From IMG/VR virus record IMGVR_UViG_3300017989_000027: a DNA stretch of 49,973 nt; one strand, 5' to 3'. This document shows positions 5,123-45,414 of the stretch, one piece after another. Source of the stretch: a virus. A program made the translations under genes and the position numbers. Positions within the stretch are counted from its first letter, which is position 1. Each line of letters opens with the position of its first letter. Below the pieces are notes generated by a model that was not told the DNA's origin, searched no databases, and was given only the letters and a program-made list of their open reading frames with translations.

Positions 5123-5621
5123 GTGTGAAAACCGTTCCTTTCCACTCCGTTCCATTCCCCTCCCGTCCAATCCCGTCCCCTCCTTTCCATTCCAATCCAG
5201 TCTTCTCCGCTCCAGTACGCTCCTTTCCATTGAATGGATGATAAGGACAACCATTCCAGTCCAATCCTCTCCCCTCCTCTCCTGTCCTTTTCAGTCCAAT
5301 CCAGTCCTTTCCGGTCCCATCCATTCCGTTGTGGATGATGAGGACGCCATTGCGTTCCGAATCCTTTCCGCTCCAGTCCTCTCCCGTCCGGTCCTCTCCT
5401 GTCCAATCCTCTCCCATCCCCTCCATTCCGTTCCGATCCATTGAATGGATGATGAGGACAACCGTTCCAGTCCACTCCTCTTCAATCCCTTCCCGTCCAG
5501 TCCAATCCCCTCCTATCCCTTCCCGTCCATTGAATGGATGATGAGGACGCCATTGCGTTCCTTTCCGGTCCTTTCCTATCCTCTCCCGTCCCGTCCTTGC
5601 CTTTCCGCTCCTTTCCGGTCC
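5123..5621 (-). repeat. GGANN pentamer satellite locus R1. Five blocks of 19, 14, 16, 12 and 12 units separated by four 29-33-nt anchors.
   Basis: The + strand parses as (NNTCC)n with exact 5-nt phase. Anchors lie at 5229-5257, 5328-5358, 5440-5468 and 5529-5561 (ATTGAATGGATGATGAGGAC..GTTCC). Confidence 0.9.
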
Positions 5622-7196: not shown

Positions 7197-7400
7197 GTGA
7201 TGAAAAACCATTGCTTTCCGATCCCGTCCGATCCGCTCCCCTCCTTTCCGCTCCCCTCCCCTCCGTTGTGTACAGAACCTTGAGAAAACCATTCCATTCC
7301 ATTCCGGTTCGATCCACTCCGGTCCAATCCGGTCAGCTCCCGTCCCTTCCTTTCCAGTTCGGTTCGTTCCTATCCAATCCTCTCCCCTCCGCTCCTTTCC
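7197..7400 (-). repeat. GGANN pentamer satellite locus R2. Blocks of 10 and 21 units with one anchor at 7265-7295.
   Basis: (NNTCC)n on the + strand. Starts 1 nt after stop codon 7402-7404 and ends 19 nt from ATG 7178. Confidence 0.9.
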
Positions 7401-7713: not shown

Positions 7714-8003
7714 GTGTGAAAGTGTGAAAACCATTCCGTTCCGATCCTTTCCCCTCCGCTCCACGCCACTCCCTTCCAGTCCATTCCACTCCTCTCCATT
7801 GTGTATCGGACCTTGGAAAACCATTCCGTTCCGCTCCGCTCCGCTCCCTTCCCTTTCTGTCCTTTCCCATCCAGTCCCATCCACTCCCTTCCAATCCGCT
7901 CCAATCCATTGTGTGTGGAACCTTGGGAGAACCATTCCAGTCCTCTCCATTCCTCTCCTCTCCCATCCAGTCCAATCCGATCCAGTCCAATCCGTTCCAC
8001 TCC
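7714..8003 (-). repeat. GGANN pentamer satellite locus R3. Blocks of 12, 16 and 13 units with anchors at 7798-7827 and 7908-7938.
   Basis: (NNTCC)n on the + strand with exact multiples of 5 between anchors. Starts 2 nt after stop 8006-8008. Confidence 0.9.
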
Positions 8004-9773: not shown

Positions 9774-10027
9774 GGTGAAGGAGCCATTGCTTTCCGATCC
9801 CGTCCCTTCCTCTCCCGTCCTGTCCAATCCCCTCCGATCCCATCCCTTCCAATCCATTGTGAATGGATGAGGACAGCCATTGCGTTCCGAATCCAATCCT
9901 CTCCCTTCCACTCCTTTCCTTTCCCATCCGCTCCCTTCCGCTCCCATCCGATCCGCTGTGAATGGATGAGGACAACCGTTCCTATCCTATCCTATCCAAT
10001 CCAATCCCGTCCTTTCCTCTCCCCTCC
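9774..10027 (-). repeat. GGANN pentamer satellite locus R4. Blocks of 12, 13 and 9 units with anchors at 9856-9888 and 9955-9982.
   Basis: (NNTCC)n on the + strand. The anchors carry the palindrome TCCATT-GTG-AATGGA. Confidence 0.9.
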
Positions 10028-10654: not shown

Positions 10655-11272
10655 TTAGACGCCGGTGCCGAGAGGTTGCTCCTCGAACTTGGTAACCTTG
10701 AACTTTCCGTACTGCGGCCGGAAGTCGGACAGACCTACCAGCACGGAGGCAGAACGCAACCAGGACATGATCCGGTCAGGATCAACTTGGTCCGGCATGA
10801 ACTGGACGGTGAACTCAACCGCCCAATTCTTGAAGATCGGACGACAGCGGAGGGTCGGTGCCCCGGACACGCGAACCATTCGCACGTCCCGGCAACCCTC
10901 GGCCTTGAACATCTTTTGCTTTTCCTTGGGACCGTCGTACTCCAGTGGGCCAGTCTGCCCAATCTGTACTGCCGACTTGGCGAAGGGTCCATCCTTGTGC
11001 TTCTTCGCTCCTGCGATCAACATTGCATGGACGTTTTCCGTCGGCCAGTAGGGTTGCCCCTGTTCGTTGAGGTATAGGGAACCCTCAAAGTCCGCAAGAA
11101 ACATCTCCTCTTGAGCTTCCTCGCTCAGGGCCTTCCCACGCTTTCGCGAAGCGTTGATCTTGGAGATCCACTTCGCATACTTGTTTGTCGGATCGGCCTT
11201 CTGCCCATTATTCATCAACGCCGGGCCGATTCCCTCGATACGAACCTTCAGCTCTGAATACAGTTCAGACAT
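10655..11272 (-). CDS. Hypothetical protein, 205 aa (MSELYSELKV...).
   Basis: I chose the internal ATG 11272. The track ORF extension to 11713 is translated array. Confidence 0.6.
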   Translation of the reverse strand: MSELYSELKVRIEGIGPALMNNGQKADPTNKYAKWISKINASRKRGKALSEEAQEEMFLADFEGSLYLNEQGQPYWPTENVHAMLIAGAKKHKDGPFAKSAVQIGQTGPLEYDGPKEKQKMFKAEGCRDVRMVRVSGAPTLRCRPIFKNWAVEFTVQFMPDQVDPDRIMSWLRSASVLVGLSDFRPQYGKFKVTKFEEQPLGTGV

Positions 11273-11313: not shown

Positions 11314-11493
11314 CAACCGTTCCGCTCCTCTTCGCTCCAGTCCTCTCCCTTCCTCTCCAATCCTCTCCGCTCCGTTCCAGTCCCCTCCCATCCACTCCTT
11401 TGTGTATAGGACCTTGGAGAACCGTTGCGTTTCGTTCCACTCCCTTCCCATCCAATCCGCTCCGATCCCGTCCGGTCCTTTCCTGTCCCTTCC
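11314..11493 (-). repeat. GGANN pentamer satellite locus R5. Blocks of 15 and 11 units with an extended anchor at 11399-11438.
   Basis: (NNTCC)n on the + strand, ending in the half-anchor TTTGTGT. Confidence 0.9.
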
Positions 11494-43552: not shown

Positions 43553-43804
43553 TTATTCATTGCAATGACAATGTTCCATGGGCTTGTTGCAGCGAATGCA
43601 CAGCAATCCAGTTCCTCGGCAGCGAAGGCAAGTGTCACGTAGGTTCGCGGTTTGGAAACTGGTTGCAATCTCTGCTGCATTGGGTTGACGAAAGACAAAG
43701 CCGAACCCAGAGCAGATTGGGCAGTATCGAAAGCCTGGCAAGATGCTGGCTTTCTTGTTAATGCTTTGCTTGATTACCTCTTGGTTTGGTGTCTGGTTCG
43801 GCAT
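43553..43804 (-). CDS. Cys-rich zinc-finger protein, 83 aa.
   Basis: CPICSG, CLRCRG, CIRCN and HCHC motifs. Confidence 0.55.
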   Translation of the reverse strand: MPNQTPNQEVIKQSINKKASILPGFRYCPICSGFGFVFRQPNAAEIATSFQTANLRDTCLRCRGTGLLCIRCNKPMEHCHCNE

Positions 43805-43956: not shown

Positions 43957-44193
43957 TTAACCTAGTTTCTTGACGTGCGTTCCTTCTGGGAGAGAAGGGG
44001 GATTCAGCTTGTGAAACAAGACGCGGCAACCTGCCCTTGCCGGATAGAGTCCGACGAAGGTGTAGCCGGTCAGATCGCCACCTTCCGCTTCGATGGCTTT
44101 GATGAGGATTTGTGCCATTTCTTCATGGCTGAAAACGTAACCGCGGGCTTCAGAACATTGCATGGTAGACCTCTTGATTAAAACGTCTTGCAT
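43957..44193 (-). CDS. Hypothetical protein, 78 aa.
   Basis: Two in-frame SD-ATG copies at 44193 and 44163. It lies directly downstream of array R6. Confidence 0.5.
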   Translation of the reverse strand: MQDVLIKRSTMQCSEARGYVFSHEEMAQILIKAIEAEGGDLTGYTFVGLYPARAGCRVLFHKLNPPSLPEGTHVKKLG

Positions 44194-44218
44194 GATAGAC
44201 CTCCTGACTGAAGGGGTT

Positions 44219-44474
44219 GGTGAAAACCATTCCGATCCCTTCCATTCCTATCCGCTTCACTTCGTTACTATCCGTTCCGCTACTTTCCACTTCCATCCGC
44301 TCCTTTCCGTTCCGATCCTCTACTTTCCATTCCCATCCGATCCAATCCGTTCCGCTCCGCTGGATGGATAAGGGCAACCATTGCTTTCCATTCCCGTCCC
44401 CTCCCCTCCTCTCCCGTCCCATCCACTACCTTCCATTCCCGTCCTGTCCATGCCCATCCAATCCAGTCCTATCC
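44219..44474 (-). repeat. GGANN pentamer satellite locus R6. Blocks of 25 and 17 units with an anchor at 44359-44389.
   Basis: (NNTCC)n on the + strand, starting 1 nt after the terS stop. It is more degenerate than the others (TAC and TTC variants). Confidence 0.85.
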
Positions 44475-44475
44475 A

Positions 44476-45240
44476 CTACACCGCTTCTCCGTTTCCGTCT
44501 GTTTCTGCGTCAACGTCTACCACGTCTTCACCGTTCTGTTGTTCGAGGGCGTTGAAGACACGTTGACCTTCTTCTGTTGCTTCGATCAGTCCGAGTTCCT
44601 GGAACAAGTACAATGCACCGGCAAGGGTTTCTTCATCTGCTGGGAACTGTTCTTTCTGAGTGACTTCAACATCGTGTTGTAGCGTTCCACCGATCTGAAT
44701 GTTGGGCGACCAGTCCTGTTTTGCAGAGCCATGCGTCAACCACCATTTCGGATCTTCTTTCGCAACAGCAACCTCTGCCAAAAGCCTGGCCTTACCTTTC
44801 GCTTCCTCAACATCTTCGAGAAATCCCAGGTAGATGAATCCATTGGGCGGTTCGATCAAGTCATTTGGATCAGGTTGTAAGTCTTCCTCTTCGCATTGTT
44901 CTAGCCTGGACAATCGTTCACGCTCTTTCCTTCCCTTGTTCAACCAGGCATAGAACGTCTTGGCGTTTACACCAAGGGAGGCTGCTGCTACATGGTCGTA
45001 GGCCCCTGCTTCTATGTAGCGAAGGAACCTGTTGTAACTCTCTGCACTTAGGGTTTCAAGGCGAAGACGCTTCCTTGGCTTCCCTTTCTGGCGGAGAATA
45101 GTAGCAGCCGTTAGTAATGGATTATGGGTGTCATCAGGGTTGCCGTTTCCATTGCCGTTTGAGTGACCATTGCCGGTGGTGTGTCTTAGCCCATCTTGGT
45201 CTTTGTCTTGGTCTTCCGGGCCCATTGGGTGTTTGGCCAT
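44476..45240 (-). CDS. terS: Terminase small subunit (HTH), 254 aa.
   Basis: HTH AAASLGVNAKTFYAWLNKG and an acidic C-terminus. I chose ATG 45240 because the track extension covers a terminator. Confidence 0.6.
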   Translation of the reverse strand: MAKHPMGPEDQDKDQDGLRHTTGNGHSNGNGNGNPDDTHNPLLTAATILRQKGKPRKRLRLETLSAESYNRFLRYIEAGAYDHVAAASLGVNAKTFYAWLNKGRKERERLSRLEQCEEEDLQPDPNDLIEPPNGFIYLGFLEDVEEAKGKARLLAEVAVAKEDPKWWLTHGSAKQDWSPNIQIGGTLQHDVEVTQKEQFPADEETLAGALYLFQELGLIEATEEGQRVFNALEQQNGEDVVDVDAETDGNGEAV

Positions 45241-45326: not shown

Positions 45327-45359
45327 AAAAAACCACCCCCCACTTCAGGTGAAGGGTGG
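45327..45359 (-). terminator. Rho-independent terminator upstream of terS.
   Basis: In mRNA sense, CCACCC...GGGUGG hairpin followed by UUUUUU. Confidence 0.55.
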
Positions 45360-45414
45360 TCAGTCTCAAGCCTGGTCATTTGACCGGCTTACCCAACCCC
45401 CACGATTGGCTCAA

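Follow-up and report, generated by a model that had tools for sequence, protein, structure and literature searches.

VIPR is a system of RNA-guided DNA silencing built on Vipr, an ancestral RAMP protein of about 200 residues (bioRxiv 10.64898/2026.04.26.720920). Its guides, the vrRNAs, comprise 9-16 pentamers in which a fixed GGY triplet alternates with a hypervariable NN pair, followed by an invariant 3' tail; there is one protomer per repeat, and the target DNA is read as NN-x-NN-x (bioRxiv 10.64898/2026.04.26.720920). Besides GGY, the VIPR preprints allow "a related consensus" and NNNGG-type repeats (bioRxiv 10.64898/2026.04.26.720920, 10.64898/2026.04.26.720927). Solo or orphan vrRNAs, found in SUSP1-family phages and F5 satellites, act in trans and are not tied to any one place on a mobile element (bioRxiv 10.64898/2026.10.15.759431). 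The main text of a further preprint describes non-canonical arrays, recognized by entropy periodicity, which lie beside Vipr-like folds and have a period of 5 nt and a non-GGY triplet, some of these triplets being degenerate at one position; the examples named in that main text are GAC, CAC, WGT and TGH, and do not include GGA or a G-N-A triplet with a tolerant middle base (bioRxiv 10.64898/2026.10.21.760802).

Here we analyse a pentamer array, R6, located in a viral DNA of 49,973 nt (IMG/VR record IMGVR_UViG_3300017989_000027) that is referred to below as the window. By the tests presented here, R6 appears to belong to the VIPR vrRNA class, for which both guides away from vipr and non-canonical triplets are already in print. 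The phage resembles carriers of VIPR type II, such as Escherichia phage SUSP1 and a Pseudomonas fulva prophage (bioRxiv 10.64898/2026.04.26.720920, 10.64898/2026.04.26.720927), in its small RAMP-like Vipr, homologous over the full length, in tandem 5-nt units of three fixed and two hypervariable bases with a conserved 3' tail, and in having several phage-borne guides in tandem on the vipr strand, with no self-target. It differs from them in its triplet (GGA with G-H-A variants instead of GGY), in the distribution of its guides (17 over six sites instead of one compact locus), in block length (up to 26 units instead of 9-16), and in its short tail without a supported pseudoknot or hairpin. The A at the third base excludes the canonical GGY type for R6, not the family. 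R6 lies away from vipr, as solo vrRNAs do; unlike their carriers, this phage keeps its own vipr, and R6 would be a remote array rather than a hijacking or decoy guide. With the non-canonical arrays, as described in that main text, it shares the period of 5 nt, the non-GGY triplet and the link to a Vipr-like fold.

The R6 tract and its surroundings

R6 consists of two blocks of in-phase pentamers, 18 and 26 units long (44 in all), on the minus strand, at 44229-44474. It begins 1 nt past the stop codon of terS and runs up to the Shine-Dalgarno sequence and start codon (ATG, 44193) of an ORF of 78 aa, the position given to it by an earlier, sequence-only reading of this DNA. The genes around it all lie on the minus strand. 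The features are as follows, in the order of that strand.

45331-45361, minus strand: terminator-like hairpin with 13 pairs and a T run, between a DUF4417 nuclease-like gene and terS
44476-45240, minus strand: terS, small terminase, 254-aa form (P0002), directly upstream of R6, stop codon at 44476-44478; phrog_4102, E=1.9e-11
44385-44474, minus strand: R6a repeat tract, 18 in-phase units (16 GGA, GGCAT and GTAGT)
44359-44384, minus strand: R6a 3' tail, the "anchor" of the sequence-only reading, 26 nt of non-repeat sequence; diverged type-1 tail of the R1/R4 family
44229-44358, minus strand: R6b repeat tract, 26 in-phase units, 20 of them GGA; 26/26 keep G1 and A3
Within 44229-44358, minus strand: off-consensus units of R6b, namely GTAGA, GAAGT, GTAGC, GTAAC, GAAGT and GAAGC
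44194-44228, minus strand: R6 terminal tail, GGTTTTCACC..., which enters the AGGAGG ribosome-binding site of the 78-aa ORF
43957-44193, minus strand: 78-aa ORF directly downstream of R6, with no Pfam, PHROG or PDB match

The two tracts had been recognized before, with 25 and 17 pentamers; the correct counts are 26 and 18, the boundary units having been assigned to the anchor, whose string had been quoted exactly for 44359-44389. Units lacking TCC, as read on the other strand, had also been listed, and there are eight of them instead of seven, since GAAGT occurs twice. The exact 5-nt phase is confirmed: the register runs unbroken across 245 nt without indels and is under constraint. Chance is excluded as the origin of this periodicity. 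The longest unbroken in-phase TCC run in the window is 16 units, while 50 shuffles never exceeded 3; a scan for G-N-A with a period of 5 nt returns exactly 17 blocks, which all lie on the minus strand, whereas 20 shuffles give none. The same scan revealed no further decayed or cryptic arrays elsewhere in the window. Positions 4 and 5 of the R6 units (NN) are near-uniform in composition, each base accounting for 11-36%. The layout is that of the arrays R1-R3 described below: a stop codon, followed after 1-12 nt by the array, then a tail of about 35 nt with a Shine-Dalgarno sequence, and an ATG. TRF reports a period-40 repeat in R6b, and no internal duplication is found there on the NN bases alone (p=0.52).

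Gene callers predict a 90-aa ORF over R6, at 44150-44422 on the minus strand (10819-11091 of L001, a copy of the region from another sample). This ORF is probably spurious, its frame staying open because GGANN repeats seldom form stop codons. Between R6 and terL, an 83-aa protein with four CxxC motifs is encoded (43553-43804, minus strand); a search of Pfam and PHROGs gave it a weak, sub-threshold match to a DnaJ-type zinc finger. A 143-aa ORF near R6 was compared with the same two collections, and no accessory gene was found near R6.

In a consensus scan, the hairpin upstream of terS is followed by no terminator-like site between terS and the 78-aa ORF. This suggests that terS, R6 and the genes down to terL may form a transcription unit of their own, with R6 transcribed together with the packaging genes.

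A vipr gene and five further arrays

The window encodes a Vipr protein and carries five additional arrays.

10655-11272, minus strand: vipr, encoding a 205-aa protein (P0001) that matches PDB 36pp_D, "SUSP1 Vipr protein" (E=1.5e-16, residues 8-196 against 4-190)
5134-5621, minus strand: array R1, 5 blocks, of the unit and tail family of R6
7215-7400, minus strand: array R2, 2 blocks
7733-8003, minus strand: array R3, 3 blocks
9791-10027, minus strand: array R4, 3 blocks
11319-11493, minus strand: array R5, 2 blocks, directly upstream of vipr

P0001 also matches phrog_4652 (E=4e-39). Its residues R144, D183 and R185 align with R138, D177 and R179 of SUSP1 Vipr, and the protein retains the G-loop D-(F/W)-R as well as the thumb Arg. 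In the alignment of Viprs from other loci presented below, these three residues are R in 87/87, D in 85/87 and R in 84/87 of the GGY-type proteins, and are kept in 6/6 of the GGA-type. The gene that follows vipr encodes 189 aa without a PDB match, and a vap1 homologue was not identified.

The 17 putative guides, 15 in R1-R5 and two in R6, occupy six intergenic sites among the replication genes and next to terS. R1-R5 are adjacent to vipr on the same strand, whereas R6 shares the strand at a distance of 33 kb. R6 is thus the only array outside the replication module, as had been noted, none other lying outside 5.1-11.5 kb.

In R1b (5464-5528), the NN bases repeat at a lag of six units, with 9/14 matches (p=0.0015 by shuffling). 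R1b alone among the 17 blocks (17 tests) shows such a 6-unit internal repeat, which may reflect a recent 30-nt duplication.

Tails of the repeat blocks

Every block in the window ends either in GGAAY followed by GGTT or in GGAAA followed by GCAATGG, including both R6 blocks. R6b ends in GGAAT followed by GGTTTTCAC, as do R1e and R3c, and the terminal tail of R6 opens like the terminal tails of these two blocks (GGTTTTCACAC). The tail of R6a is closest to those of R4 and is identical to the R4a tail at 19 of 21 positions. We built a tail model from the R1 and R4 tails, leaving R6 out. The only match outside the training tails was R6a, at 44353-44384, with 16.1 bits and E=7.5e-4; the next match had E=0.92, and the training tails scored 24.6-31.4 bits. 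With R6a as the sole additional match, R6 belongs to this tail family, as its most diverged member. The description of its anchor as a diverged type-1 anchor in the sequence-only reading is thereby borne out.

The GGTT start is also present in the tails of L011, one of the related loci described below, and the tails of another, L019, start with GGGTT. No conserved tail fold was found: RNAalifold gives three pairs without covariation, and individual tails fold no better than their shuffles do. A search of Rfam with R6 gave no match at E<=1.

Vipr loci elsewhere and the third scaffold base

A profile of P0001 and six homologues retrieved about 160 Vipr loci from IMG/VR and GTDB genomes. In most of them, period-5 GG-NNN arrays run on the same strand as vipr, as a rule no more than 1-2 kb from the gene, the exceptions being about 20 loci without a called array and a few with remote arrays. 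The association of Vipr with such arrays, GGA included, is thus reproduced independently of the published work. The arrays are mostly of the GGY type; six loci (L010, L011, L019, L025, L102 and L153) are of the GGA type, defined as at least 90% A at position 3.

When six GGA-type Viprs were aligned with 87 of the GGY type, W76 and S182 (numbered as in the window protein) were found in 5/6 of the former and 0/87 of the latter, which carry I/L/V and G at the two positions. The tree places the GGA-type rows in at least three separate positions. W76 and S182 align with M68 and G176 of SUSP1 Vipr, beside the published elements of its pyrimidine pocket (E71/M72) and its G-loop (bioRxiv 10.64898/2026.04.26.720920, 10.64898/2026.04.26.720927). 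The scaffold substitutions tried in SUSP1 included GGY>GGA and GGY>GAY, and silencing was lost when the GGY motifs were perturbed (bioRxiv 10.64898/2026.04.26.720920). GGA and GAA units would hence need a pocket of a different shape, which we infer only from the covariation of residues.

Other differences were observed among these proteins. P0001 has N where 86/87 GGY-type proteins have a His equivalent to SUSP1 H17. In the Vipr of L011, where 25% of the units are GTA, N replaces the aromatic residue that stacks on G2. N80, F184 and N21 of the window protein are listed beside W76 and S182.

Target searches and relatives of the phage

Across the window and 2.3 Mb of fetched loci, the best one-skip scores were 0.67 for R6a and 0.58 for R6b, which are equal to those of the 0-skip and 2-skip controls. 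At an NN match of at least 80%, neither guide has a target in the window or in the 2.3 Mb of related loci, and this one-skip scan gave no assignable target of the vipr, vrRNA or satellite type. Exact sub-patterns of 10-11 R6 units had no match in IMG/VR or in JGI metagenome contigs; with up to three mismatches, R6a had none in 401 Planctomycetota genomes and R6b none in 101 genomes of the family of G001, the Pirellulaceae MAG of L116. These searches, being exact or limited to three mismatches, are weak. No self-target of the R6 guides is present in the window, which agrees with the published absence of self-targeting. The one-skip scan of the window and the 2.3 Mb of loci returned no target for the 15 guides of R1-R5 either.

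One control guide, units 1-10 of R4b, had a single exact IMG/VR match, at 108-145 of L169 in a portal-like ORF. This candidate was rejected: the last three units match at 2/6 positions (22/26 overall), and the skipped base falls on codon position 1 instead of the wobble position. The match is also at chance level, with about 0.4-0.5 expected over five 20-base scans at a guessed collection size.

The terS protein has no homologue but itself in a set of 5.8 billion proteins, and single-protein scans of IMG/VR with terS and with Vipr found nothing. Four relatives (L004-L007, contigs of about 50 kb) were recognized by their terL, which is 53-57% identical; they share the synteny of terL, portal and capsid genes, and no period-5 array is present in the 10 kb that flank terL on each side. 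A terL homologue was assigned to a Thermoguttaceae MAG, consistent with a Planctomycetota host.

Off-consensus units

Eight of the 44 R6 units (18%) depart from GGA, compared with 12/216 (5.6%) in the other arrays of the window (Fisher p=0.009). At the level of whole loci the others range from 0 to 12.5%, and R6 is indeed the most degenerate, as had been stated; the block R2a, taken alone, reaches the same 18%. R6 is therefore an outlier in both location and sequence, in line with the first impression. The changes are not spread evenly over the triplet. Seven of the eight are at position 2 (four GTA and three GAA), one is at position 3 and none at position 1; across all arrays of the window, position 2 accounts for 15 of the 20 changes, and no unit has two. 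The R6 units keep G1 in 44/44 and A3 in 43/44 cases, and the third base is A in 99% of the units of the other arrays. If the three positions changed at equal rates, at least seven of eight R6 changes would fall on one named position with a chance of about 0.003 (our own calculation from unit counts).

The same kind of variation is found in other GGA-type phages. In their vipr-adjacent arrays, G-H-A units number 20/79 in L011 (GTA), 6/16 in L010, 6/30 in L153 (GCA) and 6/48 in L025, or 12-38%, compared with 7/44 in R6. Internal degeneracy is reported as "frequently observed" in VIPR repeats (bioRxiv 10.64898/2026.04.26.720920). The GTA and GAA units of R6 are thus most likely tolerated variation common to related phages, and not decay; most simply, the GGA-type subfamily would have G-N-A as its scaffold triplet, with G preferred in the middle. 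The sequence-only reading had described a phase that is retained while the GGA decays. The retained register stands and the middle of the triplet does vary, but "decay" is not the fitting word. It had also proposed, as an alternative to an older copy, a special constraint on R6, to be given up if R6 bound CsrA as well as R1 and relatives showed the same degeneracy at all loci. As G-H-A units occur beside vipr in relatives at equal or higher rates, R6 needs no such constraint, at least as far as these arrays go.

More tentatively, the middle base could be a genuinely tolerated or used second state, accommodated by a remodelled Vipr pocket, and R6 could hold working late guides against a competitor at the packaging stage, for example a capsid-hijacking satellite. 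We regard this as possible rather than probable. The remodelling may in that case consist of W76, S182 and the loss or weakening of the aromatic stacking on G2 that is present in SUSP1. The copies of R6 in three contigs from other samples (L001-L003) and in the window are 100% identical over the array, so that they give no population signal of selection. Samples that contain the phage are JGI 3300029258, SRR14699969 and ERZ27256796.

Could R6 instead be a non-functional relic of an R4- or R1-type array that landed in the packaging operon and is slowly degrading? Neutral decay should strike G1, G2 and A3 alike and produce indels, whereas here the changes concentrate on position 2 and the frame is unbroken over 245 nt with G1 and A3 kept almost throughout. 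Units of the kind that would count as decayed are equally or more common in the vipr-adjacent arrays of relatives, and both R6 tails keep the conserved junction with GGTT or GCAATGG. What speaks for a relic is the high share of off-consensus units, the most diverged tail of the family (16 against 25-31 bits), the distance from vipr, the absence of a target, which applies equally to the 15 guides of R1-R5, and the absence of an array in the terL relatives. On balance we consider a relic improbable, and the older, decaying copy proposed earlier finds no support as neutral decay. The more diverged tail leaves room for R6 to be an older or faster-evolving copy.

CsrA binding and packaging signals

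The GGANN arrays had originally been interpreted as CsrA sites. CsrB/RsmZ-type RNAs carry GGA in hairpin loops at irregular spacing, and described families of CsrA-sponge RNAs should be among the Rfam entries. Read in this way, R6 would be a sponge or leader that titrates or recruits phage or host CsrA. GGA is the core of the CsrA motif, many copies of it stand in a putative non-coding RNA, and the phage encodes a CsrA homologue (L001, 5052-5399; PF02599); CsrA-like genes are moreover enriched beside vipr, with 9/161 loci against 83/50,697 phage records. R6 differs from such RNAs in the strict 5-nt phase of its GGA and in lacking a supported structure or an Rfam match, the folding z-scores of its two segments (+0.3 and +1.5) being no better than shuffles. 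Most CsrA-associated vipr loci are of the GGY type, so the association does not run through GGA units, and a Vipr partner accounts for the period, the strand, the tails and the variable NN. The VIPR guide-RNA architecture, with a vipr gene in the same window, is the better frame for these arrays, and CsrA binding is in our view very unlikely to explain R6. TRAP sites of Bacillus trp leaders are also similar in having a fixed triplet, a period of about 5 nt and one protomer per repeat. These are (G/U)AG triplets separated by spacers of 2-3 nt, and TRAP, an 11-mer ring, takes up about 11 of them at variable spacing and has no guide function.

The CsrA-like ORFs on the vipr strand were found at nine of the 161 loci (L109, L130, L024, L025, L161, L042, L040, L039 and L035), the distance to vipr or the arrays being 0.1-1.4 kb at six or seven of them. 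One end of the window also carries this gene (corresponding to L001:5052-5399). The main texts of the VIPR-related preprints other than the structural one make no mention of CsrA, which may be an unlisted accessory or regulatory gene of VIPR.

In several pac-type phages, TerS forms an oligomeric ring and binds repeated DNA close to the gene that encodes it. A role of R6 as a DNA packaging signal, either a pac site or TerS-binding repeats, is scarcely plausible in spite of its place immediately downstream of terS, given the identical unit and tail architecture at five replication-module loci far from terS, the strict strand specificity of the arrays, a variable NN that argues against a single protein-binding site, and the terL relatives (about 55% identity) without such repeats 10 kb either side of terL.

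A probable remote guide array of a GGA-type VIPR system

Taken together, R6 is probably a remote array of two vrRNA genes that belongs to the phage's own GGA-type VIPR system. It would be transcribed with terS within the packaging operon, and Vipr protomers, encoded 33 kb away, would each bind one 5-nt unit, which would explain the strict phase. Each protomer would hold G1, position 2 and A3 and leave the two variable bases exposed. The 26-nt internal tail and the terminal tail beginning with GGTTTTCAC would mark the 3' ends of two RNAs, presumably processed to about 115 and 150 nt as judged from the lengths of tract and tail. If the GGA subfamily follows the published skip rule, the resulting filament would read double-stranded DNA as NN-x-NN-x, one base being skipped, and silence a competing mobile element. 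Several points weigh against its being a vrRNA array: R6b has 26 units against the published 9-16, the array lies 33 kb from vipr while most arrays at other loci are within 1-2 kb, the tail of R6a has plainly diverged further than the rest, the target searches above gave nothing for either guide, the terL relatives lack an array near terS or terL, the GGA and GAA units would call for a reshaped pocket, and the identical copies of the phage carry no population signal of selection.

For the annotation of this phage, the analysis is mainly a tidying: it removes the account in terms of CsrA and decay, and marks the 90-aa gene call over the tract as probably spurious. For the VIPR family, the use of GGA tracks two Vipr residues by the pyrimidine pocket, which offers a testable handle on how the third scaffold base is read. 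A VIPR-positive phage would be able to keep guide genes tens of kilobases from vipr, in a late operon. Finally, a GGA-type scaffold would act as G-N-A, and callers tuned to GGY or to perfect triplets would under-call such arrays.
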